Made by a program: the position numbers and the translations under genes
Shown: one piece after another, positions 2,557-41,613 of the stretch
How positions within the stretch are numbered: the first letter of the stretch is position 1
Layout: each line of letters starts with the position of its first letter
NCBI GenBank assembly: GCA_038061595.1
Contig: JBBTYZ010000015.1
Coordinates: 1-41,613, forward strand
Reading direction: 5' to 3'
Source of the DNA: Patescibacteria group bacterium
GTDB taxonomy: Bacteria > Patescibacteriota > Minisyncoccia > UBA6257 > GWB1-50-10
Length of the DNA stretch: 41,613 nt
The notes under the pieces: model-generated
What the model was told of the DNA's origin: nothing
The model's input: the letters and a program-made list of their open reading frames with translations, nothing else
Databases searched by the model: none

Positions 2557-4029
2557 ATGGATTACAAAGTCAAATTGGGGGAAATAAAGAAATTTATGTT
2601 TGAGAATACGTCTCTTAAACAGACTCTATTGAAAAATACATTTTGGCTATCTTTCGGCAACATTGCTGGACGGTTTATTAAAGCTATTTTAATAATTTAT
2701 TCCGCCAGAGTCTTGGGAGTAGCCGGCTATGGCACATTTTCGTATATCTTAACCTTAGCCGCGTTTTTATCTTTATTCGCTGATCTGGGGGTAACAGCAA
2801 TTATCACGAGAGAGGGCGCAAAAGACCACACAAGATTACCGTTCTTTTTAGCGACTGCTTTTTATATGAAGTTGGGTCTTTCGTTTATCAGTGTCTTAAC
2901 CGTCATTTTCGTAGCGCCATTTTTTACACAGATACCGGACGCAATGAAACTATTGCCATTAGCTGCACTACTCATAGTCCTGGATAATTTCAGAGATTTG
3001 TTTATAAGCATAGGCCGTTCGCAACAACGAATGGAAAAGGAGGCATTAATCAACATCTTCACCTATATTGCAATCACAATAAGCGGTATTGTCGCTCTTG
3101 TTATTTTTTCTTCAGTAAAAAGCCTAATCATTGGCTACATAATTGGCTCGGCAACCGGAACTCTTTTCGCCTTCATTCTTTTCAGACATCATTTCGTTGG
3201 GATTTGGCACCATTATGACAAAACACTGTTCAAAAAAATTTTTGCTGAGGGGTGGATGTTTGCCCTGTGGGGTCTTTTGGGCGGTATTATGCTAAACACA
3301 GACACGATAATGTTGGGTTGGCTCACTAATGCGCAAGAAGTTGGGTATTATTCCGCGGCACAAAGAACCATTCTTATCTTATATACCATACCGGCTCTTT
3401 TGGCCTCAGCGTTTTTTCCTGTTTTTGCAAAACTGGCCAATAAAGATGATAGTCGGTTTAGCTCCGTATTTGAAAAATCTATAAAGATCTCTTTAATGAT
3501 AGCGCTTCCCATGATAGCCGGTGGTTTAATTTTGTCATATAAAATTATTCAATTGCTTTATGGCAATGCTTATACGCCTTCCGTAACAACATTTTCTATT
3601 CTTTTGTTCACGGTGCTCATAGTGTTCCCAAGCACTTTTATAGGAAATGCTATATTTGCATACAACAAACATAAAGTTTTCGTTGGCTTCTTGACCCTGG
3701 GCGTATTGAGCAATGTGACCTTGAACTATCTTTTAATTCCACGCTTTGGAATAGAAGGCTCGGCTGTGGCAACGATCATCGCACAGCTTTTGGCAAACGG
3801 CCTTGGCTTTATTGAAATGAAGAAAATAAACAACTTTAAAGTATTGAAATATTTGCCGAAGATTTTCATGGCGACGATTGTTATGTCGATTCTTACTCTA
3901 TTTCTAAATAATTTGGGAGTAAATGTTGTAATAAACATTATGATTTCCTCTATTGTTTATTTCGGGATTCTTTATTTATTAAAAGAGTCGCTCCTTGACA
4001 AGAGAGCGCTTTTTGATACTTTGAGGTAA
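2557..4029 (+). CDS. wzx: Wzx-type oligosaccharide flippase (MOP superfamily, polysaccharide biosynthesis protein)
   Basis: About 490 aa and multi-TM (12-14 helices). The N-terminal motif KNTFWLSFGNIAGRFIKAILIIYSARVLG..YG.FSY and the overall layout match Polysacc_synt flippases, and it is a clear paralog of CDS 16655..18124. The start was moved from the track's TTG at 2488, which overlaps dsbA, to the ATG at 2557. The ATG at 2596 is an alternative. Confidence 0.85.
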   Translation: MDYKVKLGEIKKFMFENTSLKQTLLKNTFWLSFGNIAGRFIKAILIIYSARVLGVAGYGTFSYILTLAAFLSLFADLGVTAIITREGAKDHTRLPFFLATAFYMKLGLSFISVLTVIFVAPFFTQIPDAMKLLPLAALLIVLDNFRDLFISIGRSQQRMEKEALINIFTYIAITISGIVALVIFSSVKSLIIGYIIGSATGTLFAFILFRHHFVGIWHHYDKTLFKKIFAEGWMFALWGLLGGIMLNTDTIMLGWLTNAQEVGYYSAAQRTILILYTIPALLASAFFPVFAKLANKDDSRFSSVFEKSIKISLMIALPMIAGGLILSYKIIQLLYGNAYTPSVTTFSILLFTVLIVFPSTFIGNAIFAYNKHKVFVGFLTLGVLSNVTLNYLLIPRFGIEGSAVATIIAQLLANGLGFIEMKKINNFKVLKYLPKIFMATIVMSILTLFLNNLGVNVVINIMISSIVYFGILYLLKESLLDKRALFDTLR

Positions 4030-4037
4030 GCTTTTTG

Positions 4038-4058
4038 CCCCCTTCATAAAAAAGGGGG
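4038..4058 (+). promoter_or_regulatory. GC hairpin overlapping the only G-rich (SD-like) tract upstream of the GTG start of the DUF502-like gene
   Basis: CCCCCTT(4038-4044)/AAGGGGG(4052-4058) with a 7-nt loop and no U-tail on either strand, so it is not a canonical terminator. The 3' arm is the GGGGGGG tract 4-10 nt upstream of the GTG at 4064. Confidence 0.3.
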
Positions 4059-4063
4059 GGTCA

Positions 4064-4648
4064 GTGAAAGAAACTGTTTCCCGATTATCGAAGCTAAAAA
4101 GAAGAATGTGGAAGGGATTCGTCGCGCTAATAGTTCTCGCTCTATTGTTTTCTCTAGCGAAATCGACGATTTACCCGTTCTTTGATTCACTGTTTTCTGG
4201 TTTCTTGAACTTAGTGATACCACTCATAACCACCCAAAAGATTTTCACCGTTCCTATTGCCCTGATTTTTGTACCAATTATTTTGTTCGCATTGATTTAT
4301 CTTCTGGGATTACTTAGCGATTCTTTACAACTCAAAAAACCACTGATAAGAATGATATCAAAAAGGGTTCCGTTGGTGGATATTTTTAGGAGAGTACAAG
4401 AGAACCCTGAGTCTCTCATAGAAGTAATGTTCGAATTAGCCCCTGGCGTATTCAAAAAGGGCATTTTGATTGAAGAAAAAGAATATCCATTTCTAAACGG
4501 TATTGTGATATGTTCTATTTTTGAGCCCTGTCCTATTTCTCCGGGCGGAATAATATATTACGTACGAAAGGGTAGGGTCATAGTAACCGGACGCAACGCA
4601 ACAGAGACCATAAAAGAAATCACGTTTGGCTACGGCTACTCATCATAA
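4064..4648 (+). CDS. DUF502-like integral membrane protein
   Basis: 194 aa with a GTG start. Two or three N-terminal TM helices are followed by RVPLVDIFRRV and a C-terminal IFEPCPISPGGIIYYV...TETIKEITFGYG segment, matching the DUF502 pattern (iPlv..iY ... vPttPnPtsGf...S.G). Confidence 0.5.
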   Translation: MKETVSRLSKLKRRMWKGFVALIVLALLFSLAKSTIYPFFDSLFSGFLNLVIPLITTQKIFTVPIALIFVPIILFALIYLLGLLSDSLQLKKPLIRMISKRVPLVDIFRRVQENPESLIEVMFELAPGVFKKGILIEEKEYPFLNGIVICSIFEPCPISPGGIIYYVRKGRVIVTGRNATETIKEITFGYGYSS

Positions 4649-4657
4649 AAACATAAC

Positions 4658-4683
4658 AAAACCCGCAAATTTGCGGGTTTTTG
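4658..4683 (+). terminator. Rho-independent terminator
   Basis: AAAACCCGC(4658-4666)/GCGGGTTTT(4673-4681), a GC-rich stem followed by a T5 tract, 10 nt after the stop at 4648. Confidence 0.75.
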
Positions 4684-4705
4684 ATTCAACGGCTACCATA
4701 TACGT

Positions 4706-6028
4706 ATGTCAACAGCAAAAAAGCTAGTTTTACTCATAGGCGATGTTTTTTCGCTTTATTTATCGTTAATTTTAACCCTTCTCATAAGGTATGGCGTGGT
4801 TGATTTCGAAAAACACTTAGTAAGCCACCTACTGCCCTTTTCTCTGATTTTCGTCGTTTGGCTCCTCATATTCTATCTATCAGACCTCTATCGGCCAAGG
4901 AAACTGGGTGGGGCTTACAAAACTTTCGGCTCTCTTTTTGTTGCCGCATCTCTTTCAATAATAGTCTCTATAATCTTATTCTATTTGTTTGTGGGATTCT
5001 TTAACTTGACGCCAAAGACGAATCTTTTTGTGTTCGGCGGACTTTTCTTATTAACTAGCTGGCTTTGGAGAATAATATTAATAAAATTATTCACGGCAGG
5101 AGCAACGGAGGCAATAATATTAGGAGACTCTCCATTGATTCAAGGCACGATCAATCATTTGGCAGATAACCCACAAACTGGATATAAGATAGTAGATTGG
5201 CTTAAAGACCCGAAAGGTGGGAATGCGAAAGATATCATAGAAAGCATTAAAACAAAAAAAGCGCAGTTAATAATAATAATTCAGCCCCACCTTACAAAAG
5301 AAACAACAACTCAATTGGTCAAGGAATTTCTGCCACTAGAGATGGATTTTGTTAACTTCTGGGATTTCTATGAATCTATTTTCGAAAAAGTTCCGTTTGA
5401 TGAATTAGAAGAGGGGTGGTTTATGGAAAATATAACTACGCGTAGACCCTTCTATGACGCCGCTAAGCGCGGGGTAGATTTTTTTCTATCGTTTTCTTTA
5501 GGTCTCATTTTTCTCCCACTCGCAGTGATTATCGGAATCGCTGTAGCGCTTACGTCTCGCGGCCCAATTACATTAAAACAAGAGAGGCGGGGCAAAAACA
5601 GCCAAGTATTCACTCTGTATAAATTTCGCACAATGAGCACTTGGACGGGCGGCAATGACGGCACTCCAGCCTGGACGCTGAAGGATGATCCACGCATAAC
5701 GCCTTTTGGTAAATTATTACGCTTTACACATCTTGATGAACTACCCCAGCTTCTGAACATATTAATCGGGGATATTTCTTTCACCGGCCCTCGTCCAGAA
5801 CGCACTGAACTCGCAGAAAAGTATGAGAATTTGCCGTACTACGAAATGCGCCACATAGTGAAGCCAGGCCTAACTGGTTGGGCACAAATTAATTACAAAC
5901 CAAGCGCATCCTTAGAAGAAGCAAAAGAAAAACTAAAATACGATATTTATTATGTAAAAAATAGGTCGTTCTTTTTGGATGTGCTCATAATAATAAGAAC
6001 AGTTAGATATATCTTTCTGTCGCATTAG
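4706..6028 (+). CDS. Polyprenyl-phosphate sugar phosphotransferase (WbaP/EpsL-type initiating phosphoglycosyltransferase)
   Basis: 440 aa with N-terminal TM helices, a central Rossmann-like linker and the C-terminal bacterial sugar transferase domain. Hallmark strings are KRGVDFFLS...LYKFRTM, DDPRITPFGKLLRFTHLDELPQLLNIL.GDISF.GPRPE and KPGLTGWAQINY. Confidence 0.92.
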   Translation: MSTAKKLVLLIGDVFSLYLSLILTLLIRYGVVDFEKHLVSHLLPFSLIFVVWLLIFYLSDLYRPRKLGGAYKTFGSLFVAASLSIIVSIILFYLFVGFFNLTPKTNLFVFGGLFLLTSWLWRIILIKLFTAGATEAIILGDSPLIQGTINHLADNPQTGYKIVDWLKDPKGGNAKDIIESIKTKKAQLIIIIQPHLTKETTTQLVKEFLPLEMDFVNFWDFYESIFEKVPFDELEEGWFMENITTRRPFYDAAKRGVDFFLSFSLGLIFLPLAVIIGIAVALTSRGPITLKQERRGKNSQVFTLYKFRTMSTWTGGNDGTPAWTLKDDPRITPFGKLLRFTHLDELPQLLNILIGDISFTGPRPERTELAEKYENLPYYEMRHIVKPGLTGWAQINYKPSASLEEAKEKLKYDIYYVKNRSFFLDVLIIIRTVRYIFLSH

Positions 6029-6040
6029 TAAATCAACAAT

Positions 6041-7942
6041 ATGTGTGGAATAAGCGGCGTATATCATTTCGGAAATTCAAAAACGGTAAACGTTAAGGAT
6101 GTCGTGAAAATGCAGGACACGCTTATTCATCGTGGCCCCGATGGCGGAGCCGATTACATATCGCCGAACAAAAAAGTTGGTCTTTCCCAGAGACGCCTTG
6201 CGATAATAGATCTTTCTAAAGAAGCGGCCTGCCCAATGACAAATGAGAAGGGCAATGTTTGGATAACCTATAACGGCGAAATATATAATTTCGAATCAGT
6301 TAAAGAAGAGCTTGTTAAGAAAGGTTATAAATTCAAAACCCAAGGCGATACGGAGGTTATTCTCTATGGCTATGAAGAGTGGGGCCCGGATGTAGTCAAA
6401 AAACTGAATGGCATGTTTGCCTTCGTAATTTGGGATGAAGAAAATAATGTTCTTTTCGCCGCAAGAGACCATATGGGTGTAAAGCCGTTCTTTTATAGCG
6501 TCCAAAATGAAACCTTTTATTTCGGCTCGGAGATAAAAGCGATACTCGCCCATCCGGATTTCAAGAAAGAATTAAACGAAGTTGGTGTTTTTCATTACTT
6601 AACATTTTCCTCAACTCCTGCGCCGCACACTCTTTTCAAAGATGTTCAAAAACTTGAAGCGGCGCATTATCTCCTAATACGAAATGGAAAAATAGAAACA
6701 AAAGAATATTGGTCGCCTGTAAACGGTGAGGGCGAAAACCTGAACGAAAGCCAATATATTGAGCGCGTCCGTTCTTTGCTTGAGGACTCCGTCCGTTCGC
6801 AAATGGTCTCGGATGTTCCCTTCGGCTGTTTCCTCTCCGGCGGAATTGATTCCTCAACAAACGCGGCTTTGATGAGCAAGGCGCTGGGAAAGCCGGTTGA
6901 GACATTCTCCGTCGGCTACAAAAATTTTGACGAGAAAAATGAGTTTCAATATTCGCGGATGATGGCGAAAGAGTTGGGAGCGAAAAATCATGAAATTCTG
7001 CTTGATGAATCACACATGCGGAAATTCTTGGACGAGTATGCCCACTATGCCGATGATCCAAACGGTGATCAGGTCTGCTTTCCCCTCTTCTGGCTTTCAA
7101 AACTAACAAAAGACAATGGCGTAACTGTAATTCAAATTGGCGAAGGGGCAGATGAACTTTTTGCCGGATACGAGACATACCTCAAGGCAATCCGGCTTCG
7201 CGAAACTGTTTGGGACAAACTGGGCGCTCTCCCCGACTTCTTGAAGAAATCATTGCAAGCGGGAAAATGGATGTTTAATGATTTCCAAAGAGAATATATA
7301 CGAAGACTTGTTTTGAACCAAGAACCTTTTTGGGGACTCGCAACCGCGTTTGGCGGAGAAATGAAGTGCGATCTTTTAACCGAGGGCTTTAAGAAGAAAC
7401 AGAGCAAATCAAGCTACGAAGTGGTTAAGCACCGCTACGACGAGATAAGAGCTGTGGATCCCAAAGCCGATTACCTCAAGCAAATGACCTATTTTGAACT
7501 AAAACACCGCCTGCCGGAGTTCTTGCTCGCCCGAGCGGACAAAATGACTATGGCCCACTCGGTTGAGGGCAGGGTGCCTTTCTTGGATAAACGCCTTGTT
7601 GAATTAGCGTTCAACATGCCGACCGACATAAAAATAAAAGGCGGGAACACAAAACACATCTTGAAAAAAGCTGTTGAAGGAATAATCCCCCAGGAAATAA
7701 TAGACAGAAAGAAACAGGGATTTGGAAATCCGATTGGCGAATGGCTAAAACCGGGAAACCCAATCTCAAAAGAATTAACCGATATAATCTTCAACTCAAA
7801 CCTCCGAAAGCAGGACATATTGAATTACGAATACGTTAAAAAAATAATTCACGACCATCAGCACAGAAATACGGATAACGGCTTCAAAATTTGGAACCTA
7901 ATCACCCTTTCTCTTTGGTACGATTATTGGTTTAAGGTATAA
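6041..7942 (+). CDS. asnB: Asparagine synthase (glutamine-hydrolysing) family amidotransferase, probably a sugar/uronate amidotransferase in this context
   Basis: 633 aa with the N-terminal nucleophile MCGI (Ntn glutaminase domain) and the PP-loop SGGIDSS in the synthetase domain. Confidence 0.88.
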   Translation: MCGISGVYHFGNSKTVNVKDVVKMQDTLIHRGPDGGADYISPNKKVGLSQRRLAIIDLSKEAACPMTNEKGNVWITYNGEIYNFESVKEELVKKGYKFKTQGDTEVILYGYEEWGPDVVKKLNGMFAFVIWDEENNVLFAARDHMGVKPFFYSVQNETFYFGSEIKAILAHPDFKKELNEVGVFHYLTFSSTPAPHTLFKDVQKLEAAHYLLIRNGKIETKEYWSPVNGEGENLNESQYIERVRSLLEDSVRSQMVSDVPFGCFLSGGIDSSTNAALMSKALGKPVETFSVGYKNFDEKNEFQYSRMMAKELGAKNHEILLDESHMRKFLDEYAHYADDPNGDQVCFPLFWLSKLTKDNGVTVIQIGEGADELFAGYETYLKAIRLRETVWDKLGALPDFLKKSLQAGKWMFNDFQREYIRRLVLNQEPFWGLATAFGGEMKCDLLTEGFKKKQSKSSYEVVKHRYDEIRAVDPKADYLKQMTYFELKHRLPEFLLARADKMTMAHSVEGRVPFLDKRLVELAFNMPTDIKIKGGNTKHILKKAVEGIIPQEIIDRKKQGFGNPIGEWLKPGNPISKELTDIIFNSNLRKQDILNYEYVKKIIHDHQHRNTDNGFKIWNLITLSLWYDYWFKV

Positions 7943-7949: not shown

Positions 7950-9578
7950 ATGCGAATACTTACGGGTAAAAAGTGGCGCGATGGCTTCCTAGATTACCAT
8001 CGGAACAAAAAGGAATACCGCATACAAGTTCTCGCTTGGAAAGACTTGGAAAAGCTTGAGAATGTTTACCACACACGTGCCAAAAGCTTGCGGCTTCTTA
8101 TGAATTACCTGCCGGTTGTTGGTCCCGAGGGACTCATCACAAAAACCTGGTCAAGGATAAGAGAGGAAAGGCGCAATGAAAAATACCTCGGCTGTGGAAT
8201 AGGAATAGTTATGGAAAAGCCCGAAGGCGGCAGCTTTTCTGTGGGAGATGTTGTCGCATTCGTTGCTCCTTGGCACCCACCCCTTTCGGAAAGAATCGTG
8301 TTGCCGGAAATGCTTGTTGCCAAAATAGACAGCACTAGTATGCCCGAGCTCAAAGAGAACACTATTCTTTTCCAACCCTTGAAATCCAAAGAAACTCAAA
8401 ATATTTGGTGGAAAGGCGTTAAAGCATGGAGTGTTTACTCTGGAATAGAGATTTCTGAAGCGACGAGGAAGGGGCTTCAAGATGGGCTAAAGAACGAAAT
8501 AAAAAATACCGATTGGGCGAAGTCGGAACATATTAACGCTAAAAATCCCAGCCCGATTGCAGAAATGAAGATTAAGGAGGGGGCGAGAGAGTCTGATTCC
8601 GGCAAGAAGAGCGGAGTTTTATTCGGCTACGGTAACTACGCCAAGATAAACATAATCCCCTACGCCGGCAAATTTGTTGATATAAAAACGGTTCACGAGA
8701 TAGACCCAACGCAGATATTCATTGAAAAGCGGGTTCAGAAGTGGGATTCTTCCCCATTTCCGAGAAAAGACGAAAAACATGATGTTTATTTCGTCGCAAG
8801 CTACAACCACACGCATGTTCCGATAACCCTTCATGCCCTGAAGCAAGGCGCGTATGTGTTGGTAGAAAAGCCGGTTGTTATGGACTATGAGGAATTGGAC
8901 GAGCTTGAAAAAGCCCTAAAGGTTGCGGGGAGAAAACTTTTTATCGGCTTCCACAAGCGCTATGGCTTGTTCAATGAATTGGCGCTCCAAGATTTGGGTG
9001 TAAAACGCGGCGAGCCGATTTCCTACCACTCAATAGTTTACGAGCTCATTCAGCCCGAATTTTTCTGGTACAACTGGCCTGTTTCCCGAAGCACATTCTT
9101 ATCAAACGGATGCCATCAGGTTGACCACTTCCTGCACTTGAACAACTGGAGCAAGCCCAAAGATGCCGATATAAAACTATTGCAGGATGATGCGGTTGAG
9201 GTTTGGATTGAGCTTGAAAACGGGGCGACATTCACCACAACCTTCAGCGAGAAAGGCGTGTATCGCGTTGGCCCAAGAGATCACGTTGAGCTCAAAGTCC
9301 ACGGCAGGAATGTAAGAATAACGGACGCTATAAAATATCAGTCAGAGGACAATCACAAAATAATCCGCAGGAAGAGAATATTTAAGACGAATAGCTACAG
9401 AGATATGTATGAAACGATTGGTAAGAAGATGGCCAATAACGAACCGGGCGATTCAATAGAATCGGTTTTGATTTCGTCAAAAATAATGCTGGATTTGGAA
9501 GAAAAATTGCAGAAAATGAAAAAATGGGGAAATAGATACGATAAGGCTAAAGATGAGTTTGAGAGGTATTTTTCTTAG
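7950..9578 (+). CDS. Gfo/Idh/MocA-family NAD(P) oxidoreductase with a ~215-aa N-terminal extension (GroES-like segment reminiscent of 'bi-domain' oxidoreductases)
   Basis: The C-terminal half has the Rossmann motif GVLFGYGNYAKINIIP and the family EKP motif (AYVLVEKPVVMDYEELDEL). The N-terminal segment YLGCGIGIVMEKPEGGSFSVGDVVAFV...LVAKI resembles the ADH GroES-like lobe. No ADH Rossmann domain lies between the two. Confidence 0.65.
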   Translation: MRILTGKKWRDGFLDYHRNKKEYRIQVLAWKDLEKLENVYHTRAKSLRLLMNYLPVVGPEGLITKTWSRIREERRNEKYLGCGIGIVMEKPEGGSFSVGDVVAFVAPWHPPLSERIVLPEMLVAKIDSTSMPELKENTILFQPLKSKETQNIWWKGVKAWSVYSGIEISEATRKGLQDGLKNEIKNTDWAKSEHINAKNPSPIAEMKIKEGARESDSGKKSGVLFGYGNYAKINIIPYAGKFVDIKTVHEIDPTQIFIEKRVQKWDSSPFPRKDEKHDVYFVASYNHTHVPITLHALKQGAYVLVEKPVVMDYEELDELEKALKVAGRKLFIGFHKRYGLFNELALQDLGVKRGEPISYHSIVYELIQPEFFWYNWPVSRSTFLSNGCHQVDHFLHLNNWSKPKDADIKLLQDDAVEVWIELENGATFTTTFSEKGVYRVGPRDHVELKVHGRNVRITDAIKYQSEDNHKIIRRKRIFKTNSYRDMYETIGKKMANNEPGDSIESVLISSKIMLDLEEKLQKMKKWGNRYDKAKDEFERYFS

Positions 9579-35061: not shown

Positions 35062-35100
35062 CTGTAAATATCTCCACCAACGGGGGCTTATTTATCTTAT

Positions 35101-35619: not shown

Positions 35620-36652
35620 ATATTTTGTTGATATCCCTAAGATGAGCAGCAAAATATTCTTTGTGTCTCTTGATTATTACGTTCTCCGATTCCATCAACT
35701 TTTCCAAAAACTTCACTGGATCTTTTTCGGTTATAGCATTGATTTCCGCCCACACCTCATGTCCGTGCATATATCCTTCGATCTCTGTCAAAAAATCATT
35801 TTTATAGACATTACGAGCGCCCCACACCCCACGATCTTGTCGATTCACTGCATCACCAACATGGACATACATATCGTTGTTAAAAAGCACTTTCTGAAAT
35901 ACGAAAGAATGGAAAATATCATCCATCCGTTCCGCAAAAGGCCACATGAGCGCGAGTGGAAAGATAAATTTTGCATACACCGTATTCTGAGTGTTATACG
36001 GCGACCAAACATTTTTTAGGCAATAATTTTTTTCTCTGATTGACTCAAGGGGTAGACGCTTGGGGTAAACCAGACGGGTTCTAGCATCAATATCTGGGTC
36101 ACCTAGGGAAATTCCTTGAAAAAGACCAATCTCTTGAGGTTGAATAGCATCTTTTATTGCCCTAACCTCTGTAGCATCTTGCCACAAAAATGGCATGGGA
36201 AAACCACGTGGATACATTTCTATAGGGGCCGGAGCGGTCTTCAGATAGTTATGCCAGGGAGCAGGCACAACCTCTTTTGTAACTTCGACTACTTGATTTA
36301 CTGGTCTCGTAAGAACATTGTGCCAACTTTCAAAATAATCGGGGTCGGGAATGTTGTCATCATCAATAGTAAGAATAAAATCCGGATTAAGCTCTAAGGC
36401 ACGCAGAAATGCGGCGTTTCTTCGTCTCTGACTTTTCCAACCAATAAGACTGCTTATCTCAAAACGCTCTTGGTTTTTGGGTGATAAATACTCAATCTTA
36501 CATTTGAATTTCTTGTCATCAAATGGCTTTGAGGTTGTGTCTCCGGCAATAACAAATACAACCTCTGAAAATTTACTTTTTGCCGCCAATGAATCGTAAG
36601 GCAGGTATCCCTCCTCTCCGTTTATGGTTGTAGAAACAATTACTAATTTCAT
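35606..36652 (-). CDS. RGP/GT75-like protein (reversibly glycosylated polypeptide / UDP-arabinopyranose mutase-like fold)
   Basis: 348 aa, and by-eye alignment to plant RGP/UAM runs along the whole length. LVIVSTTIN matches IVIPTIRN and FILTIDDDN matches YIFTIDDDC (DxD). YPRGFPMPF matches VRGYPFS and includes the Arg corresponding to the reversibly glycosylated Arg. GISLGDPDIDARTRL matches GLWLNIPDYDAPTQL, and ERMDDIFHSF matches GRYDDMWAGW. Confidence 0.5.
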   Translation of the reverse strand: MKLVIVSTTINGEEGYLPYDSLAAKSKFSEVVFVIAGDTTSKPFDDKKFKCKIEYLSPKNQERFEISSLIGWKSQRRRNAAFLRALELNPDFILTIDDDNIPDPDYFESWHNVLTRPVNQVVEVTKEVVPAPWHNYLKTAPAPIEMYPRGFPMPFLWQDATEVRAIKDAIQPQEIGLFQGISLGDPDIDARTRLVYPKRLPLESIREKNYCLKNVWSPYNTQNTVYAKFIFPLALMWPFAERMDDIFHSFVFQKVLFNNDMYVHVGDAVNRQDRGVWGARNVYKNDFLTEIEGYMHGHEVWAEINAITEKDPVKFLEKLMESENVIIKRHKEYFAAHLRDINKIYGKA

Positions 36653-36671
36653 ATAGATTTACAATGTTGTT

Positions 36672-37628
36672 TTATATTCTTCCTTTTTCCTTCATGTCCG
36701 ATTCAATCCAATTATACAGTTCTTTTATTCCTTCTTGAAGAGAAACGCTTGGCTTCCAATTAGAATTGAACTCTTTCTCAACAACGTTCTCCGGGCCAAG
36801 TTTTCGTTCAATGCCCCTTGGCGCATCAAGTTTGTGCTTCCTATTAAACTTTATTCCGGCAGCAGCTTCAACCGCATCAACCAACTGATTTATAGTTACA
36901 AATTCCCCACTCCCGAGACGCACCGGTTCTGTAATCTCGCTTTCTGTTAATTTGCGTATTCCATCCACCGCGTCTCTCACAAACATAAAGCTTCTAACCT
37001 GCGTACCGTCTCCCCAAATTTCGAGATCAAGATTCCCGGAAGATTTAGCGATAACCGCCTTGCGACAGAGTGCGGCAGGAGCCCTCTCTCTACCACCCTC
37101 GTAGGCATCGTGTGGCCCATATATATTCTGGAGACGGCCAATCCTAGTAGGCAATCCGAAATCTTCACGAAAATATTTACAAAGTTTTTCGCTGAAAAGT
37201 TTTTCCCAAACATGGCCGTCCTCAATAACGTCTGTTAGGGCCTTGCCCTCTTGGGGGACTTCGGCCACAGAAACTGCATTTGAAGAAGAATAGAAATACC
37301 GTCCCACTTTTGCCGCTCGCGCAGCCATAAGAAGGTGGGTATTAATTAGAACAGAAAGCATGGTTAGGGCTTTCTGTTTCTCAATAAAGTTAACCCCGCC
37401 GATTTCAGCGGCCAAATTATATACCCCATCAACGCCCTCCATCGCCTTTTCACAACTCTCTTTAAGAGTGAGGTTTAAGGAGATGTTTTCCGCTTCCTTG
37501 TGGAGTTGTTTCCATTCGGAAAGTCCCCGCTTCCCAACAGCACGCACTCGAAAACCATCACTTAAAAGACTTCCTACTAAATGGCCACCAATAAGCCCGC
37601 TTCCGCCCGCAACTAATATTCTTTTCAT
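36672..37628 (-). CDS. GDP-mannose 3,5-epimerase (GME)-family extended SDR with non-canonical active site
   Basis: 318 aa with ILVAGGSGLIGGHL. The long strings IGRLQNIYGP, EGGRERAPAALCRKA and WGDGTQVRSF mirror plant/bacterial GME (IGRFHNIYGP, KGGREKAPAAFCRKA, WGDGLQTRSF). The YxxxK motif reads HVWEK (His139). Confidence 0.7.
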   Translation of the reverse strand: MKRILVAGGSGLIGGHLVGSLLSDGFRVRAVGKRGLSEWKQLHKEAENISLNLTLKESCEKAMEGVDGVYNLAAEIGGVNFIEKQKALTMLSVLINTHLLMAARAAKVGRYFYSSSNAVSVAEVPQEGKALTDVIEDGHVWEKLFSEKLCKYFREDFGLPTRIGRLQNIYGPHDAYEGGRERAPAALCRKAVIAKSSGNLDLEIWGDGTQVRSFMFVRDAVDGIRKLTESEITEPVRLGSGEFVTINQLVDAVEAAAGIKFNRKHKLDAPRGIERKLGPENVVEKEFNSNWKPSVSLQEGIKELYNWIESDMKEKGRI

Positions 37629-37657
37629 AATTTGTGATTTATTTATTGTTCAACGCA

Positions 37658-38935
37658 CTAAGTTTCGTAAATCTTAAATTCCGGCATGGGTACGATAAAT
37701 TTTCCGCCATTTTTAAAAAATTCTTTTTCACGTTCTCTGAATTCTGGAAGAAAATGCCAGGCTAAAACAAAGTAATAATCGGGTTTTTGACTCCGCGATT
37801 GTATCTCTGACACGACGGGAATTTTGGTACTCACTGTTATCTTGCCCCACTTCAATGAGTTTCTATCGGCAATCGCTTCGATCAATTCTGGTTTTAATCC
37901 GTAAAACTGCAGAGTCGTATTCCCTTTAGTAGACGCCGCATAGCCGTGAACCTTCTTACCACTAGCTATCTCTTGCTTTATGAAAGACACAACCCTCTCC
38001 TTTGTTTCAATGGTTCTTTTGGCAAATCTCTCATAAATATCTTTGTCGTCTAAACCGAGTGATTTTTCTTTTTCGCGTACCGCTAAAACTCTTTGCTTCG
38101 CACCATCATAAACACTCAAGTTCTTGCCCAATCCTTTTTTTCTGACATATATCCGAACACTGCCTTCATTAATGTGCTCCCTCATTTCTAAATCGAAAAC
38201 CTCAAGTCCGTGACGGGCGAGCAAGTTCTCAAGAGCCATCAATGAGTAGTATTCAAGGTGCTCATGACAAATGCCATCAACCGCGTTCTGCCCGAGGAAA
38301 GACGGCAGATACATCATTTGGATAACAAGAATCCCGTCATCATCTAAACACTTCACGATATCACTAACGAAAATATTAGGGTTATCCAGGTCATAAAACA
38401 TCGCAATCGCAGTAATGCTCTTGGCCTTGGCATTGCCAAACTCTTTCTCCCAAGAGTTGTGGTTAAAAAAATCAACTATTATTTTAGTAGTCCCCTTTTT
38501 GCCTTCTTCTTCTAGGTTTTTCGCTGGCTCAAAACCAACTGTTTTCAACCCAGGAATTTTATAACCACGTAGAAGCGTGCCATCATTTGCACCTATATCT
38601 ATAACCAAATCGCCACTTTTCAAACCGACAATTTCGGAAACCTTGTTTGCTATCCCATTTAACTCATCCGTCATCGTCTGGTTAATCCCTGACTTATACC
38701 AATAATTTCTATACATAACCTCTCCAGAAACGGTATGTCTGAGCTGAAGCAAACCGCAACCGCCATCTTTTTGATTGCACAAAACCAATTCTAAGGGCGC
38801 CTCAGTGCCCTGATATTCTTGCCCCGGATCCAAAAAATCCGAAACATATAGATTACCGAGTGAAAAAATCTGAGTCAGATTTTTAAAACCACAAGAGCGG
38901 CATGACTCAATAACACGAATCATTGGATTTGACAT
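37658..38935 (-). CDS. NDP-4-keto-sugar C-methyltransferase (TylCIII/EryBIII-type; Zn-finger + SAM MT + C-terminal MT_14 domain)
   Basis: 425 aa with an N-terminal 4-Cys module CRSCG...L.LVLCNQKDGGCGLLQL, SAM motif I VIDIGANDGTLL, and the C-terminal domain typical of sugar C3/C5 C-methyltransferases (HGYAASTKGNT...KWGK..P). Confidence 0.82.
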   Translation of the reverse strand: MSNPMIRVIESCRSCGFKNLTQIFSLGNLYVSDFLDPGQEYQGTEAPLELVLCNQKDGGCGLLQLRHTVSGEVMYRNYWYKSGINQTMTDELNGIANKVSEIVGLKSGDLVIDIGANDGTLLRGYKIPGLKTVGFEPAKNLEEEGKKGTTKIIVDFFNHNSWEKEFGNAKAKSITAIAMFYDLDNPNIFVSDIVKCLDDDGILVIQMMYLPSFLGQNAVDGICHEHLEYYSLMALENLLARHGLEVFDLEMREHINEGSVRIYVRKKGLGKNLSVYDGAKQRVLAVREKEKSLGLDDKDIYERFAKRTIETKERVVSFIKQEIASGKKVHGYAASTKGNTTLQFYGLKPELIEAIADRNSLKWGKITVSTKIPVVSEIQSRSQKPDYYFVLAWHFLPEFREREKEFFKNGGKFIVPMPEFKIYET

Positions 38936-38950
38936 AGCTTTAACAAATTA

Positions 38951-40009
38951 TCAATTCTGGAACTTACCGTCAACTCCGACAAGTTTTAGGTCGCTCTCTA
39001 ACATTAGCTTAACGAGCTCTTTAAATCTGACTTTGGGTTCCCACCCCAATATTTGTTTGGCCTTAGAATAATCCCCTTGCAAAACATCCACTTCGGCCGG
39101 ACGAAAATACATTGGATTTATCTTAAAAATCGTCTTGCCACTTTTTTTATCAATGCCTTTTTCGTTCACACCATGCCCGTCCCAAATCAAATCAATGCCC
39201 ACCAAACGACACGCCTCTTCAATAAATTCGCGAACCGAATGAGTTTCGTTCGTAGCCAACACATAATCGTCCGGTTTATCTTTCTGCACCATTAGCCACA
39301 TGCCATAGACATAATCCTTGGCATAACCCCAATCTCTTTTTGCGTCAATATTGCCGACATGAACGATGTCTAACTTTCCGGCAACAATATTAGCTAAACC
39401 CAACGTGATTTTCCGAGTAACAAAATTTTCGCCACGCCTTGGCGATTCATGATTGAAAAGAATGCCGTTCGAAACGTGCAGTCCATAACTCTCGCGATAA
39501 TTAACCGCTGCCCAATAAGCGTAAACCTTAGAAACTCCGTAAGGACTTCTCGGGTGGAAGGGAGTTGTCTCCTTCTGAGGCGTTTCTTTGACCAACCCAA
39601 ACATTTCAGAACTTGAAGCTTGGTAAAAACGCGTCTCGGAGTTATCGTGACGAATTGCCTCTAGAAGACGGGTTGTTGAGAGAGCAACAGCGTTGCCAGT
39701 AAATTCGGGAATATCAAAACTAATCCGAACATGGCTTTGAGCGCCGAGATGATATACCTCATCAGGCTTCAAATCACGAATGATCCGATGAAGAGAACCG
39801 GAGTCGGTTAGATCACCGTAGTGAAGGGTAATCAAATTCTTCTTGCCGTGCATATCGGGGAAAAGATGTTCGATTCGCTCGCGATTAAAAGTGCTCACAC
39901 GCCGTACTAAACCATGAACCTCATAGCCCTTCTGAAGCAAAAGCTCCGCTAAATAAGAACCGTCTTGACCGGTTATGCCAGTGATAAATGCTCTTTTTTG
40001 TTTTCCCAT
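38951..40009 (-). CDS. gmd: GDP-mannose 4,6-dehydratase
   Basis: 352 aa with [39 protein letters not shown] (T/S-S-E), [12 protein letters not shown] (YxxxK) and [17 protein letters not shown]. Confidence 0.92.
39950..39979. repeat. 30-nt stretch identical between the two gmd paralogs (second copy at 40986-41015)
   Basis: TAAATAAGAACCGTCTTGACCGGTTATGCC occurs at both positions on the plus strand and encodes [10 protein letters not shown] on the minus strand. A further shared 15-mer, CCATGAACCTCATAG, lies just upstream in both. Confidence 0.85.
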
Positions 40010-40064
40010 GACAGATATAGCTAATTATTGAATAGAACCTATAAAAAACAAGCAGGGTTTAATT

Positions 40065-41048
40065 TCAGACGTTTTTTAAATCAGACTCAACCATCATCTG
40101 CACCAAATCCTGAAAATTGGTTTTTGCCTTCCAGCGCAATGCGTTTTCAATTTTTTTCGGATTCGCAAGCCATTCTCTAGCCTCGCCTGGCCTAAAAAGA
40201 GATTCGTCTATGGAAACATAATCTTTGGAATCCAATCCAACAAATTTAAAAGCTGCCTCAACAAATTCACGAATGGTATGGCTCTTGCCCGTTCCAATCA
40301 CATAGTCATCGGGCTTATCCGCTTGAAGCATCAACCACATCGCCTCGACATAATCACCGGCAAATCCCCAATCTCGTCTCGCATCCAGATTGCCAAGACG
40401 AAGCGTTTTTTCTTTACCGGATTTAATACGGGCGACTGCAAGGCTAATTTTTCTCGTGACAAATTCAAAACCTCGACGAGGAGATTCGTGACTAAACGCG
40501 ATGCCAGAACAGGCGAACATGTAATGAGTGTCACGATAAAACTTAGTAAGATATAGTCCGGAAGCCTTGGAAACTCCGTAGGGTGTTGTCGGAGCAAATC
40601 GAGCCTGCTCGTCTTGAGGCGAATCACCTAAACCACTAAAGAGATCGCTCGTAGCAGCGAAGTAGAAACGAGATTTAGGACTAACATCTCGTAACGCAGA
40701 CAACAAATAGTGCGTACCCGATACGTTTGTAATCATTGTTCCAAGTTCATCATTAAAAGATTCTGTAATACTCGCAATCGCCGCCAAGTGATAGACCTCG
40801 TCAGGCCTCACCTTATTGATTAACTGCCAAACGGTTGCGTAATTTGTAATATCGCCTGAATGAAGAATTAGATTTTTGTTCTCAAGAAGATGGTTGATGC
40901 GCGAAAATCGGGCAGGGCCACTCTCGAGGGCGACGCGTCTTACCAAGCCATGAACCTCATAGTCTTTTTTAAGCAGAAGCTCGGTTAAATAAGAACCGTC
41001 TTGACCGGTTATGCCGGTTATTAAAGCTACCTTTCTTTTATTTTCCAT
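40065..41048 (-). CDS. GDP-mannose 4,6-dehydratase paralog (shorter; possible GDP-heptose-specific dehydratase/oxidase)
   Basis: 327 aa with [37 protein letters not shown] and SHESPRRGFEFVTRKIS. The catalytic T-S-E reads T-S-D (AATSDLFSG). This is the only gene here with a clear SD (GAGGTGA, 7 nt upstream of the ATG). Confidence 0.82.
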   Translation of the reverse strand: MENKRKVALITGITGQDGSYLTELLLKKDYEVHGLVRRVALESGPARFSRINHLLENKNLILHSGDITNYATVWQLINKVRPDEVYHLAAIASITESFNDELGTMITNVSGTHYLLSALRDVSPKSRFYFAATSDLFSGLGDSPQDEQARFAPTTPYGVSKASGLYLTKFYRDTHYMFACSGIAFSHESPRRGFEFVTRKISLAVARIKSGKEKTLRLGNLDARRDWGFAGDYVEAMWLMLQADKPDDYVIGTGKSHTIREFVEAAFKFVGLDSKDYVSIDESLFRPGEAREWLANPKKIENALRWKAKTNFQDLVQMMVESDLKNV

Positions 41049-41093
41049 AATACTTCACCTCATCTTACGCTCGACTTAGCCGTATTTCAAACC

Positions 41094-41613
41094 CTAGAGA
41101 TGATTCTTGTTGTTGATATAATCCAAAGCCTGGAGCAAACCATTAATATCTTCCTTATAACTGAAGCGCTGAACAATCTTGAAAGACTCTCTGCCAAAAC
41201 TATTCAACTTATTTTTATCGGCCATTAGATTGTCTAAAAACCCAGTGAGCTCCTCAACGTTACCAAGCTCGAAAATAAAACCGTTTTGGCCGTGATGGAC
41301 CAAACTTTTACCGCAACCAACCATATTAGAAACAATAACCGGTAGACTAAAACACATCGCTTCGTTTACCACCAAGCCCCAGGTTTCTCCGACGCCAGAT
41401 GGCAACACAAAAATATCAGCCGCCGCATAAAACTTTGGCAATTCGGTTTGATTCTGGAACCCAACGAAATGCACATTTTTGACATCTCTTTCGTCAACGT
41501 ATTTCTCTAAGGCTGTCTTAAGAATACCGTCTCCAACGAACACAAGAACTTTGTTGCTGTCTTTGAGATTTTCATAAGCCATCAACAGATCCATTGGTCT
41601 TTTCTTGTCTATC
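41094..41613 (-). CDS. GT4 glycosyltransferase, C-terminal part only (5' end beyond the right window edge)
   Basis: The frame stays open to nt 41613 (..IDKKRPMDLL..). It has the GT4 C-terminal motif FVLPSGVGETWGLVVNEAMCFSLPVIVSNMVGC. Confidence 0.8.
   Translation of the reverse strand, partial: IDKKRPMDLLMAYENLKDSNKVLVFVGDGILKTALEKYVDERDVKNVHFVGFQNQTELPKFYAAADIFVLPSGVGETWGLVVNEAMCFSLPVIVSNMVGCGKSLVHHGQNGFIFELGNVEELTGFLDNLMADKNKLNSFGRESFKIVQRFSYKEDINGLLQALDYINNKNHL

Follow-up and report, generated by a model that had tools for sequence, protein, structure and literature searches.

Gene Content and Organization of the Locus

From nt 2557 to the edge of the window (the whole 41,613-nt stretch analysed here), the ORF listing and gap table give 38 genes: five on the plus strand (2488/2557-9578) and 33 on the minus strand (9547-41613), the latter all co-directional and the final one interrupted by the window end. 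The two directions of transcription converge at 9547-9578. Only three gaps in the minus array exceed 100 nt (20986-21091, 106 nt; 23786-23929, 144 nt; 26230-26332, 103 nt). Stop and start codons overlap by 4 nt (ATGA type) at 11296-11299, 32308-32311 and 33555-33558, and by 1 nt at 12522, 14778, 19331 and 22850; refining a start in the dehydratase/dehydrase pair adds a TGATG overlap at 25174. Gene count, gaps and overlaps all agree with the original prediction, as do the near absence of Shine-Dalgarno-like motifs upstream of the genes and the presence of a small CxxC redox gene (981-1217) and a Zn-ribbon gene (1446-1637). GC content is uniform across the window (0.38-0.44).

The families originally called by eye survived annotation with Pfam and NCBIfam, which assign glycan-related families to 35 of the 38 genes, in line with the near-total glycan content proposed from nt 2557 on. 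Pfam had no match for 4064-4648, 9547-10134 and 35606-36652, the last of which was placed afterwards by structure. Its census of the window comprises nucleotide-sugar enzymes, seven glycosyltransferases, one initiating phosphoglycosyl transferase, two Wzx flippases, five SAM methyltransferases and one C-methyltransferase. A functionally coherent, co-directional run of 33 genes is far beyond chance.

The cluster begins at 2557 as predicted, but the window edge is not its end. On an identical NCBI contig (L001) it continues with the rest of the GT4 gene, a methyltransferase, a GT4, a 189-aa ORF and a Wzy_C-family membrane protein, in this order. The locus thus extends at least 4.6 kb past the window, to a total of at least 44 kb, and gains one glycosyltransferase (7 + 1) and one SAM methyltransferase (5 + 1). 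We found no chain-length regulator in the locus, which has two flippases and one phosphoglycosyl transferase. It is a Wzx-type glycan locus, a kind already known, and represents another variant. The genes for assembly and modification, together with two small uncharacterized ORFs, are:

2557..4029, plus: Wzx-type flippase 1 (Polysacc_synt 120.9 bits, Polysacc_synt_3, MurJ; 14 hydrophobic segments; the ORF opens with TTG at 2488, its first ATG is at 2497, and 2557 is the start originally chosen)
4064..4648, plus: 194-aa protein with three hydrophobic segments (no Pfam/NCBIfam match)
4706..6028, plus: initiating polyprenyl-phosphate phosphoglycosyl transferase (Bac_transf 196 bits; TIGR03025 324.7 bits, above the cutoff of 295.55)
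7950..9578, plus: Gfo/Idh/MocA oxidoreductase, 540 aa with a ~210-aa N-terminal extension (GFO_IDH_MocA, partial match)
9547..10134, minus: 195-aa protein, last gene of the minus array (no Pfam/NCBIfam match)
11296..12522, minus: GT4 glycosyltransferase (Glycos_transf_1, Glyco_transf_4)
12522..13316, minus: GT2 glycosyltransferase (Glycos_transf_2 64 bits; L025 orthologue 58% identical)
13351..14136, minus: FkbM/TRM5-like SAM methyltransferase (Methyltransf_21; TIGR01444 61 bits)
14146..14778, minus: class I SAM methyltransferase (Methyltransf_11 77 bits)
14778..15959, minus: GT4 glycosyltransferase (Glycos_transf_1 134.5 bits; L025 orthologue 54% identical)
16655..18124, minus: Wzx-type flippase 2 (Polysacc_synt 130 bits; 12 hydrophobic segments)
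18171..19331, minus: GT4 glycosyltransferase (Glycos_transf_1 120 bits; L007 and L025 orthologues 65-68% identical)
19331..20122, minus: class I SAM methyltransferase (Methyltransf_31/23/11)
20134..20985, minus: FkbM-family methyltransferase (Methyltransf_21 96 bits; TIGR01444 124.6 bits)
26333..27397, minus: glycosyltransferase, start refined to Met45 (Glyco_trans_1_2 96 bits)
27408..28523, minus: FkbM-family methyltransferase (Methyltransf_21 59 bits; TIGR01444)
28536..29678, minus: GT2 glycosyltransferase (Glycos_transf_2 104 bits)
41094..41613, minus, running past the window end: C-terminal part of a 398-aa GT4 glycosyltransferase (Glycos_transf_1 105.7 bits)

The Gfo/Idh/MocA protein has a GFO fold with WbpB- and GnnA-like proteins among its structure matches, and its family is kept across the CPR, with homologues 64-80% identical in many Patescibacteria.

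Heptose, ManNAc and Amidotransferase Genes

All four genes of a GDP-heptose pathway are present, accompanied by candidate modifying enzymes:

16010..16597, minus: GmhA, sedoheptulose-7-phosphate isomerase (TIGR00441 220.2 bits, cutoff 209.45)
29686..30438, minus: HddC-like heptose-1-phosphate guanylyltransferase (top NCBIfam NF049965 178 bits, cutoff 300; NTP_transferase)
30450..31439, minus: HddA-like heptose-7-phosphate kinase of the GHMP type (top NCBIfam NF049969 151.8 bits, cutoff 600; GHMP_kinases_N and _C)
31445..32311, minus: extended SDR (Epimerase 122.6 bits; an 81% identical orthologue lies beside HddA in L081)
32308..33558, minus: NDP-sugar 6-dehydrogenase (TIGR03026 203.9 bits, cutoff 189.8)
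33555..34490, minus: extended SDR (Epimerase 95.5 bits; weak NCBIfam matches only)
34492..35061, minus: RmlC-fold 3,5- (or 3-) epimerase of a 4-keto NDP-sugar (TIGR01221 143.3 bits, cutoff 155.75)
35101..35619, minus: GmhB-like heptose-1,7-bisphosphate phosphatase, 172-aa form following the NCBI record of L001 (NF006506 147 bits, cutoff 178; TIGR01656 115.9 bits, cutoff 84)
10136..11299, minus: WecB, non-hydrolysing UDP-GlcNAc 2-epimerase (TIGR00236 433.4 bits, cutoff 210; Epimerase_2 359.6 bits)
6041..7942, plus: AsnB-type glutamine amidotransferase, candidate uronate amidase-forming enzyme (Asn_synthase 315.6 bits and GATase_7; TIGR01536 520 bits)

GmhA is the one heptose enzyme to score above its NCBIfam equivalog cutoff; for HddA, HddC and GmhB the best match falls below. 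By homology, GmhA, HddA, GmhB and HddC would convert sedoheptulose-7-phosphate to GDP-D-glycero-D-manno-heptose (module A), and this heptose is probably modified further by the adjacent epimerase, SDRs and 6-dehydrogenase. Against the PDB, the epimerase matched RmlC at ~118 bits and the C. jejuni GDP-4-keto-heptose epimerases at ~100 bits, and the dehydrogenase matched UDP-glucose dehydrogenase best (131 bits, versus 66 bits for GDP-mannose dehydrogenase). WecB would supply UDP-ManNAc (module E); uronate formation by the dehydrogenase, and amidation by the AsnB-type enzyme, whose action on a sugar is predicted, are possible additions.

C-Methyl and Putative Furanose Genes

Further toward the window edge lie the genes of two predicted GDP-sugar modules, together with a Gmd paralogue:

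38951..40009, minus: Gmd (TIGR01472 541.6 bits, cutoff 415)
40065..41048, minus: Gmd paralogue (TIGR01472 349.4 bits, below the same cutoff; 45% identical to Gmd by pairwise comparison)
37658..38935, minus: NDP-4-keto-sugar C-methyltransferase, TylC3/TcaB9 family (Methyltransf_14 146.8 bits, Methyltransf_13 41.9 bits, Methyltransf_23)
36672..37628, minus: GDP-mannose 3,5-epimerase (GME)-like SDR
35606..36652, minus: GT75/MtdL-like NDP-pyranose/furanose mutase (no Pfam match)

The Gmd paralogue resembles P. aeruginosa GMD (327 bits) far more than the C. jejuni GDP-heptose 4,6-dehydratase (96 bits), and the closest PDB match noted for the C-methyltransferase is the mycarose 3-C-methyltransferase 4rv9 (E 5e-59). 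Gmd and this methyltransferase, along with a 4-ketoreductase, would yield a GDP-6-deoxy-3-C-methyl-hexose (module B).

The original prediction named a modified heptose, a C-methyl 6-deoxyhexose, ManNAc-derived residues, possibly amidated uronates and heavy O-methylation, and the heptose genes, Gmd with the C-methyltransferase, WecB, the AsnB-type enzyme, the 6-dehydrogenase and many methyltransferases are there in its support, but it overlooked a furanose module. The SDR beside the C-methyltransferase is GME-like, matching GME (2c59) at 194.8 bits versus ~72 bits for GDP-fucose synthase. It is paired with the mutase gene, as it also is in L008, L027 and L081. The AF2 model of the mutase (pLDDT 93.1) has MtdL, a GDP-L-galactose pyranose/furanose mutase of family GT75, as its top Foldseek match (E 8e-21, TM 0.76), and the family profile agrees (E 3.4e-26). 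A DDDN motif (DXD), the Arg nucleophile R149 (MtdL Arg159) and the Asp base D245 (MtdL Asp260) are conserved. Because the Mn ligand His287 of MtdL is replaced by Gln and no equivalent of MtdL Asp87 is present, the family could differ in activity. The GME-like SDR and this putatively Mn-dependent mutase would form a GDP-L-hexofuranose (module C), GDP-L-galactofuranose being the simplest reading.

A Cassette with an Fe-S-less 3-Dehydrase and a Split Transketolase

Five consecutive genes make up module D (hereafter cassette D):

25174..26229, minus: RmlB-like NDP-hexose 4,6-dehydratase (TIGR01181 319.7 bits, cutoff 365)
23930..25174, minus: E1/RfbH-like PMP-dependent 3-dehydrase without Fe-S motif, start refined to Met25 (NF011936 RfbH 405.7 bits, cutoff 423)
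22850..23785, minus: extended SDR, candidate branch or 4-keto reductase (Epimerase 169 bits)
22029..22850, minus: split transketolase, ThDP (PP) subunit, TKn (Transketolase_N 140.8 bits)
21092..22027, minus: split transketolase, Pyr/C-terminal subunit, TKc (Transket_pyr, Transketolase_C)

The best PDB matches of the dehydratase are dTDP-glucose 4,6-dehydratases (~237 bits). The 3-dehydrase had been called an E1 enzyme, and it does belong to the RfbH/E1-like family (E1 3bcx 284 bits, ColD 190 bits), with the catalytic His retained at the E1-H220 position. Three of the four [2Fe-2S] cysteines (C251, C253, C261) are, however, missing, also in all nine homologues examined (seven close CPR orthologues and, at 46-50% identity, L011 and L012), and Pfam found no ferredoxin-reductase-type E3 domain among 40 proteins. 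The enzyme is thus E1-like by sequence but ColD-like in its cofactors. No nucleotidyltransferase for the cassette D hexose lies within the window.

The transketolase assignment stands as far as a split enzyme with an intact ThDP core is concerned, but the enzyme is non-canonical. Compared with E. coli TktA, TKn keeps H26, the GDG motif, N185 and H261 and carries H66W and H100I; TKc keeps R358, D381, E411, H473 and R520 and carries S385Y, F434Q, H461S and D469Y. W66 with a non-His residue at 100 is common to 116 of the 120 best ThDP-subunit homologues. Split transketolases are commonly housekeeping, GmhA of the same locus requires sedoheptulose-7-phosphate, and the top NCBIfam matches are transketolase and DXS models, all of which, like the intact core, would suit a pentose-phosphate enzyme that feeds the heptose pathway and makes no branched sugar. 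We regard this as very improbable, as the pair keeps its synteny with the dehydratase, dehydrase and SDR throughout the CPR, L025 and L007 included, although the 16-21 kb examined of each revealed no heptose genes. Furthermore, transketolases that the same search found outside glycan contexts have every canonical residue, including the five substrate-site positions changed here (H66W, H100I, S385Y, H461S, D469Y), and related loci hold two different non-canonical pairs.

The split transketolase is instead probably a C2-branching enzyme analogous to YerE. The dehydratase and the ColD-type dehydrase would generate an NDP-3,6-dideoxy-4-ketohexose, the transketolase would add a two-carbon unit to the C4 ketone, and the SDR would reduce the product to a predicted 3,6-dideoxy-4-C-branched hexose. 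Cassette D would then be a functional analogue of the YerE/YerF steps of yersiniose through another ThDP enzyme superfamily. The replacement of H66 and H100 by Trp and Ile makes an acetyl equivalent from pyruvate the most likely unit, the substitution H102L of the equivalent His promoting pyruvate as donor in a Geobacillus enzyme (PMC11997939).

Branching of NDP-sugars by transketolase-family enzymes has been proposed for miharamycin and amipurimycin, without biochemical proof (PMC12247030). This missing precedent favours a product lacking the C4 branch, such as a plain 3,6-dideoxyhexose of the colitose or abequose kind, for which a ColD-type dehydrase and an SDR suffice; the transketolase-like pair would then serve another substrate, in sugar-aldehyde chain extension or keto-acid chemistry, and a sugar phosphate instead of an NDP-sugar could be the ligand of the retained R358 and R520. 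In canonical transketolases, D469 and H461 position the phosphorylated aldose acceptor, and their loss argues against an ordinary acceptor of this type. Seven CPR loci, moreover, tightly conserve SDR-TKn-TKc as the order that immediately follows the dehydrase, and we find the unbranched product unlikely.

Related CPR Loci

The same modules occur in different orders in L081, L025, L007, L009, L010 and L027. All six share the cassette D order (glycosyltransferase, 4,6-dehydratase, dehydrase, SDR, TKn, TKc) at 38-80% identity, with SDR orthologues (51-65% identical) immediately upstream of TKn; in L006-L010, L025 and L081 the dehydratase is directly preceded by an orthologue of the 26333..27397 glycosyltransferase. 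The locus is no one-off: uncharacterized CPR relatives hold orthologues of most modules, 19 of them in L081 (52-81% identity). Annotated plasmid and phage collections contained no similar DNA. Mosaic CPR loci that reshuffle the same modules form a family, and this locus is one arrangement within it.

The heptose/Gmd block lies elsewhere in L081 and is absent from the L025 stretch examined, so modules are separable. Together with the two flippases and the converging transcription, this could indicate two or more independent abutting glycan loci, such as an EPS unit on the plus strand, equipped with a flippase and phosphoglycosyl transferase of its own, next to a glycan unit on the minus strand. 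Such a composite is doubtful: the sole initiating transferase found sits on the strand opposite to all glycosyltransferases, GC is uniform, the minus array is almost without gaps, and L025 keeps a backbone colinear with most of it (GT4d ... GT25, dehydratase, dehydrase, SDR, TK pair ... GT4c ... GT4b, GT2a).

Host and Proposed Role

We consider it likely that the whole cluster is the main surface-glycan locus of an uncultivated groundwater Patescibacteria, Wzx-dependent and polyprenyl-phosphate-linked, with at least five modules (A-E) supplying its donor sugars. The sugar products, O-methylation and uronate amidation are all predicted from homology. An oligosaccharide, probably O-methylated, would be flipped by Wzx, and the Wzy_C-family protein would either polymerize it or transfer it to a surface acceptor. 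An ultra-small uncultivated bacterium would thereby give over at least 44 kb to a single surface-glycan cluster.

The original guess of a small-genome, uncultivated host was correct: the DNA comes from a Patescibacteria (CPR) MAG of Hainich groundwater. Identical proteins, named "[Patescibacteria group bacterium]" at NCBI, occur on the MAG contig CAYHZZ010000005.1 and on Hainich 0.1-um groundwater contigs. The host is probably of the Parcubacteria type, and the closest relatives of its 3-dehydrase (69-78% identity) all come from CPR MAGs.

Organization and extent of the locus

Pfam and NCBIfam searches, the latter with curated or equivalog cutoffs, assigned all but three of the 38 genes (35) to families linked with glycans, so that the original prediction, made by eye, that nearly every gene from nt 2557 onward belongs to a glycan-assembly family holds under HMM testing. 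Two of those three genes, 4064-4648 and 9547-10134, matched no model of either library; the third, 35606-36652, was placed by structure. GmhA, Gmd, WecB, an EPS-type phosphoglycosyl transferase, an NDP-sugar dehydrogenase and an AsnB-type amidotransferase scored above the curated cutoffs, and HddA, HddC, GmhB, RmlC, RmlB, RfbH and a second Gmd-like protein were best matches yet fell below the equivalog cutoffs. The window encodes seven glycosyltransferases, two Wzx flippases, five SAM methyltransferases (three of them FkbM-type) and one TylC3-family C-methyltransferase.

The layout is also as predicted. Our ORF map and gap table give 33 co-directional minus-strand genes (9547-41613), exactly three gaps over 100 nt (20986-21091, 23786-23929 and 26230-26332), and stop/start overlaps of 4 nt (three) and 1 nt (four); shifting the dehydrase start to Met25 creates an additional TGATG overlap, called the fifth. 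Five plus-strand genes (2488/2557 to 9578) converge on this array. GC content is uniform over the window (0.38-0.44), and start codons are hardly ever preceded by Shine-Dalgarno-like motifs, as had been noticed. Among the few exceptions, both purine-rich and SD-like, is an A6G7 homopolymer at about 4049-4061, immediately 5' of the GTG start of a three-TM gene (4064-4648); this run could be slippage-prone. In the three large gaps, sigma-70 promoter and terminator scans returned 15 and 4 sites against 15.6 and 7.2 in shuffled sequence, so that without an excess of either these gaps cannot be called promoters. Scans for tRNAs and Rfam families gave no match, and megablast of 25 kb against annotated plasmid and phage collections found no similar DNA.

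The small redox and Zn-ribbon genes of the original prediction were both found directly left of the glycan locus, in a minus-strand redox set (47-2526):

47-976, minus strand, TrxB/AhpF-like reductase
981-1217, minus strand, 78-aa CxxC glutaredoxin/NrdH-like gene
1222-1389, minus strand, 55-aa hydrophobic peptide
1446-1637, minus strand, 63-aa Zn-ribbon
1777-2526, minus strand, DsbA-like protein with an N-terminal TM segment

With this redox set on its left, the locus has a real left boundary at about nt 2557. Proteins identical to those of the window occur on a 44.2-kb NCBI MAG contig (CAYHZZ010000005.1, GCA_964361385.1) and also on contigs of Hainich groundwater, 0.1-um fraction. Past the window end, the identical contig carries the remainder of a GT4 gene, a methyltransferase, a further GT4, a 189-aa ORF and a Wzy_C-family protein, extending the locus to at least 43.7 kb (~44 kb) and about 42 genes.

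The guess that the host is a small-genome uncultivated bacterium is supported by the NCBI label of the identical proteins ("Patescibacteria group bacterium") and by the nearest relatives found for the dehydrase, at 69-78% identity, which all come from CPR MAGs: a Patescibacteria H43 bin, Jorgensenbacteria, Brennerbacteria, Minisyncoccia and a "Saccharibacteria" label; any placement finer than the Patescibacteria group rests on such neighbours. Separately, one transketolase subunit and the Gfo/Idh/MocA protein have close homologues (58-71% identity) labelled Woesearchaeota and Nanoarchaeota; this may reflect genes shared by CPR bacteria and DPANN archaea, or else mis-binning.

Glycan assembly

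The locus type itself, a Wzx-dependent glycan cluster, is already known. What is new here is the module set together with an E1-like dehydrase lacking an Fe-S cluster, a non-canonical transketolase and a GT75-like mutase, in a CPR surface-glycan setting. An initiating polyprenyl-phosphate glycosyl-1-phosphate transferase is present at 4706-6028 (Bac_transf, 196 bits; TIGR03025, 324.7 bits, above cutoff), and the two MOP-family Wzx flippases (2557-4029 and 16655-18124) have 12-14 TM segments. The presence of two flippases and one priming enzyme bears on whether one glycan or two are made.

No Wzy polymerase was found within the window. Just past its end, an 11-TM Wzy_C-family protein (70.7 bits) lies at positions 1-1392 of the identical contig (L001), cut by the contig end. 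This family also holds ligases and O-oligosaccharyltransferases, and the protein is likely the polymerase or ligase of the pathway. Pfam matches to Wzz, Wzc or Wza, as chain-length regulator or exporter, were absent from all 40 proteins of the window and from its extension on L001. In the proposed pathway, the phosphoglycosyl transferase would prime polyprenyl phosphate, elongation by up to eight glycosyltransferases and decoration by methyltransferases would follow, and Wzx would flip the glycan for polymerization or ligation by the Wzy_C-family protein.

A non-canonical transketolase in a proposed branched-sugar cassette

Five contiguous genes form the cassette: a 4,6-dehydratase (25174-26229), a 3-dehydrase (23930-25174), an SDR (22850-23785) and a split transketolase made of a ThDP subunit (TKn, 22029-22850) and a Pyr/C-terminal subunit (TKc, 21092-22027).

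In an alignment with E. coli TktA, whose reference residues were verified, the split transketolase retains the ThDP/metal motif (equivalents of G114, D155-G156 and N185) as well as the cofactor-activating E411, H26, H261, H473, R358 and R520. Relative to TktA, the window protein and five CPR orthologues carry the substitutions H66W, H100I, S385Y, F434Q, H461S and D469Y. Transketolases of non-glycan contexts recovered in the same search keep every canonical residue, and an intermediate clade (45-53% identity), found beside SDR or DegT-like genes, has lost only H461 and D469. W66 with a non-His residue at position 100 occurs in 116 of the 120 best database homologues, among which the named ones belong to CPR and one Woesearchaeota. 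A housekeeping role is rejected on the active-site substitutions and the synteny, together with the canonical residues of the non-glycan enzymes and the W66/non-His100 pattern of the homologues.

In a Geobacillus transketolase, engineering of the equivalent histidine (H102L) makes pyruvate the favoured donor relative to hydroxypyruvate (PMC11997939). From this donor switch and the replacement of H100 we infer an acetyl-type C2 transfer. The transketolase pair would transfer this unit onto a 4-keto-3,6-dideoxy sugar, and the ever-adjacent SDR would reduce the branched product, giving an analogue of YerE/YerF built on another ThDP superfamily.

The dehydrase finds its best match in Yersinia E1 (284 bits), followed by ColD (190 bits). 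In every sequence aligned, the active-site lysine of aminotransferases is replaced by a histidine, which corresponds to H220 of E1. The [2Fe-2S] motif (C-X57-C-X1-C-X7-C) is incomplete: only the C193 equivalent is kept, and the C251/C253/C261 positions read I, gap, I in the window dehydrase and seven close CPR orthologues, and S, gap, A/T in two loci with 46-50% identical homologues (L011 and L012). Fer2, FAD_binding_6 and NAD_binding_1, the Pfam domains of an E3 flavin/Fe-S reductase, matched no window protein. A classical Fe-S E1 working with E3 is therefore rejected on the three missing cysteines out of four and the absence of a reductase domain in the locus. With its histidine kept and its Fe-S cysteines lost, the enzyme is E1-like in sequence and predicted to be ColD-like in cofactor requirements.

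One of the closest known systems, alike in step order, is the yersiniose A pathway of Y. pseudotuberculosis O:6, which uses a CDP-glucose 4,6-dehydratase, E1/E3 3-deoxygenation, the ThDP carboligase YerE and the reductase YerF. Both have a 4,6-dehydratase, a PMP-dependent 3-dehydrase, a ThDP enzyme and an SDR reductase in succession within one surface glycan locus. However, the window dehydrase lacks the [2Fe-2S] cysteines and has no E3 reductase gene, the dehydratase is closer to the dTDP-glucose than to the CDP-glucose enzymes, and the ThDP enzyme is a two-subunit member of the transketolase superfamily, whereas YerE is decarboxylase/acetolactate-synthase-like. Pfam detected no YerE-type enzyme (TPP_enzyme_N/M/C) in the window, where the sole ThDP proteins are Transketolase_N and Transket_pyr/Transketolase_C. 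A nucleotidyltransferase matching the cassette was likewise not found in the window.

According to a 2025 review, YerE-like enzymes branch LPS sugars, and transketolases have only been proposed for such a role, in two antibiotic pathways (PMC12247030). In that proposal for miharamycin and amipurimycin, as in the one made here, a transketolase-family enzyme would add a C2 unit to a keto sugar to give a tertiary alcohol (PMC12247030). These are actinomycete nucleoside antibiotics whose transketolase step is unproven, whereas the window enzyme is split and lies in a surface-glycan locus; moreover, its H66W and H100I substitutions suggest a non-hydroxylated (acetyl) donor rather than the hydroxyacetyl donor of the antibiotic proposal.

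We put forward tentatively, and with somewhat less than even confidence, that a diverged split transketolase lineage (W66/I100, without H461 and D469) was recruited by Patescibacteria, and perhaps DPANN archaea, as an NDP-sugar C-branching enzyme. With the Fe-S-free E1-like 3-dehydrase it would yield a 4-C-two-carbon-branched 3,6-dideoxyhexose for a surface glycan, as a new enzyme class analogous to YerE but unrelated to it; the GT75-like mutase of the same loci would supply an L-hexofuranose, and the result would be an exotic, lineage-typical coat of minimal-genome episymbionts.

Predicted heptose, C-methyl and uronate modules

The predicted heptose pathway (GmhA, HddA, GmhB, HddC) is complete at the family level, with only GmhA above its equivalog cutoff. 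HddA (151.8 against 600), HddC (178 against 300) and GmhB (147 against 178) fall below theirs, each nonetheless as the best-scoring NCBIfam model. An RmlC-fold epimerase, two SDRs and a diverged NDP-sugar 6-dehydrogenase accompany HddA/HddC in the window and in a related CPR locus, L081. The four families with adjacent RmlC-fold epimerase and SDRs recall the heptose pathways of the Aneurinibacillus S-layer glycan and the C. jejuni capsule, and characterised GDP-D-glycero-alpha-D-manno-heptose pathways likewise have downstream GDP-heptose epimerases and reductases. Unlike these, the window module combines sub-cutoff enzymes with a UGDH-family dehydrogenase, for which we know of no counterpart in characterised heptose pathways.

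The C-methyltransferase (37658-38935) has the three-domain architecture of TylC3/TcaB9-type NDP-4-keto-sugar 3-C-methyltransferases, namely Methyltransf_13 (Zn), Methyltransf_23 (SAM) and a C-terminal Methyltransf_14, and aligns over its full length to 4rv9 (E 5e-59). As in those systems, a 4,6-dehydratase gene is adjacent. Since this dehydratase is a true Gmd (38951-40009), the substrate is probably GDP-linked, unlike the dTDP-linked substrates of TylC3/TcaB9; a GDP-based C-methyl sugar route has been proposed for virenose in Coxiella. The Gmd paralogue (Gmd2, 40065-41048) is 45% identical to Gmd; it scores 327 bits to a GMD, and its score of 96 bits to the GDP-heptose 4,6-dehydratase of C. 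jejuni lends no support to a GDP-heptose 4,6-dehydratase role, although it may still have one. WecB, the dehydrogenase and the AsnB-type enzyme may plausibly make ManNAc-derived and amidated uronate residues.

A putative GT75-like mutase and a GDP-mannose-3,5-epimerase-like gene

A putative furanose module (35606-36652 and 36672-37628) had been overlooked in the original prediction. The product of 35606-36652 matches no Pfam or NCBIfam model, yet belongs to a well-conserved family with an invariant DDDN. Its AlphaFold model (pLDDT 93) has MtdL (7xps) as top Foldseek match (E 8e-21, TMq 0.76) and rice UAM2 as second, and the family profile also finds MtdL by sequence (E 3.4e-26). MtdL and Hyg20 are GT75 pyranose-furanose mutases of GDP-L-galactose/GDP-L-fucose from the A201A and hygromycin A antibiotic pathways; the roles of MtdL residues and its substrate, GDP-L-galactose, are described in PMC9937993. 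D97-D99/N100, R149 and D245, invariant in 30 family members, align to the DDD motif, the nucleophile Arg159 and the base Asp260 of MtdL, whose Gln229, Arg257 and Arg289 also align to invariant residues. The two enzymes thus share fold, DDD(N) motif, nucleophile, base and a neighbouring GME-like gene. In contrast, identity is only ~21%, the Mn ligand His287 is replaced by Gln272, Asp87 by a non-acidic residue, and the setting is a CPR surface-glycan locus rather than an actinomycete antibiotic cluster.

The adjoining SDR (36672-37628) scores 195 bits to GDP-mannose 3,5-epimerase and ~72 bits to GDP-fucose synthase. On these PDB scores, its assignment as the GDP-fucose-synthase-type reductase of the C-methyl branch was replaced by a GDP-mannose-3,5-epimerase-like one, which leaves the Gmd and C-methyltransferase branch without an assigned 4-ketoreductase. 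The mutase/GME-like pair is kept in three related CPR loci (L008, L027, L081) that have no Gmd or C-methyltransferase. The simplest reading is that the GME-like SDR would convert GDP-mannose to GDP-L-galactose and the putative mutase would convert this to GDP-L-galactofuranose.

Related loci in CPR bacteria

Comparison of the ORFs of more than 70 fetched loci with the proteins of the window revealed a recurrent colinear backbone: GT4 ... Glyco_trans_1_2 glycosyltransferase, 4,6-dehydratase, dehydrase, SDR, TKn, TKc ... methyltransferase, GT4 ... GT4, GT2. In L025 this backbone is kept and a 14-gene block (27408-41048, with the heptose, Gmd, C-methyl and furanose genes) is missing. L081 holds 19 orthologues (52-81% identity), with the heptose/furanose block downstream of the transketolase pair, a second transketolase pair, and no Gmd or C-methyltransferase; the Gmd-Gmd2-C-methyltransferase trio is thus a window-specific addition among the loci seen. 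The predicted supercluster stands as a contiguous multi-module glycan locus, not as a singleton: with the block missing in L025 and moved in L081, it is one arrangement of shuffled modules. Four related loci carry a further non-canonical transketolase, either as another split pair or as a single fused protein of 612 aa:

L081, 15489-17263
L010, 18312-20023
L008, 12587-14412
L009, 18476-20311

These differ from the window pair and also lack H461 and D469, so transketolase-type enzymes look recurrent in CPR glycan loci.

CPR/Patescibacteria make up a large share of bacterial diversity and are widely regarded as symbiotic. Every cultivated member is an obligate episymbiont attached to other cells (PMC11623550). 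In the literature search, CPR glycan loci appeared only as general mentions ("glycosyltransferases", "O-antigen nucleotide sugar genes"). Here, as this locus and its relatives show, a genome type otherwise called stripped down invests at least 43.7 kb in a many-sugar, heavily tailored glycan, and the locus points to two enzyme types with no earlier tie to cell-surface glycans: the non-canonical transketolase by the deoxysugar cassette and the GT75-like furanose mutase. If confirmed, these would offer concrete targets for host recognition and phage receptors in CPR and an additional ThDP catalyst for tertiary alcohols on sugars, and would caution that an annotation as "transketolase" in a CPR metabolic reconstruction need not mean a pentose-phosphate pathway.

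The slot between dehydrase and SDR is variable: a 144-nt gap in the window (23786-23929), an additional SDR in L007 (11338-12261), a Pfam-less ORF of 234-245 aa in L025 (7601-8335) and L081 (5586-6290), and an HTH_38 protein, typical of IS30-type transposases, in L027 (2065-3048). The Gfo/Idh/MocA protein (~540 aa, 7950-9578) combines, by structure search, a generic GFO fold with an N-terminal extension of ~210 aa of unassigned fold; homologues in many Patescibacteria lineages share 64-80% identity with it, one homologue carries a Nanoarchaeota label, and such conservation is unusually strong for a gene of a glycan locus. Finally, L025 has three neighbouring ORFs (3156-5137) with matches to the Glyco_trans_1_2 glycosyltransferase: a full-length copy of 362 aa, and fragments of 191 and 128 aa resembling a duplicate that has split or decayed.
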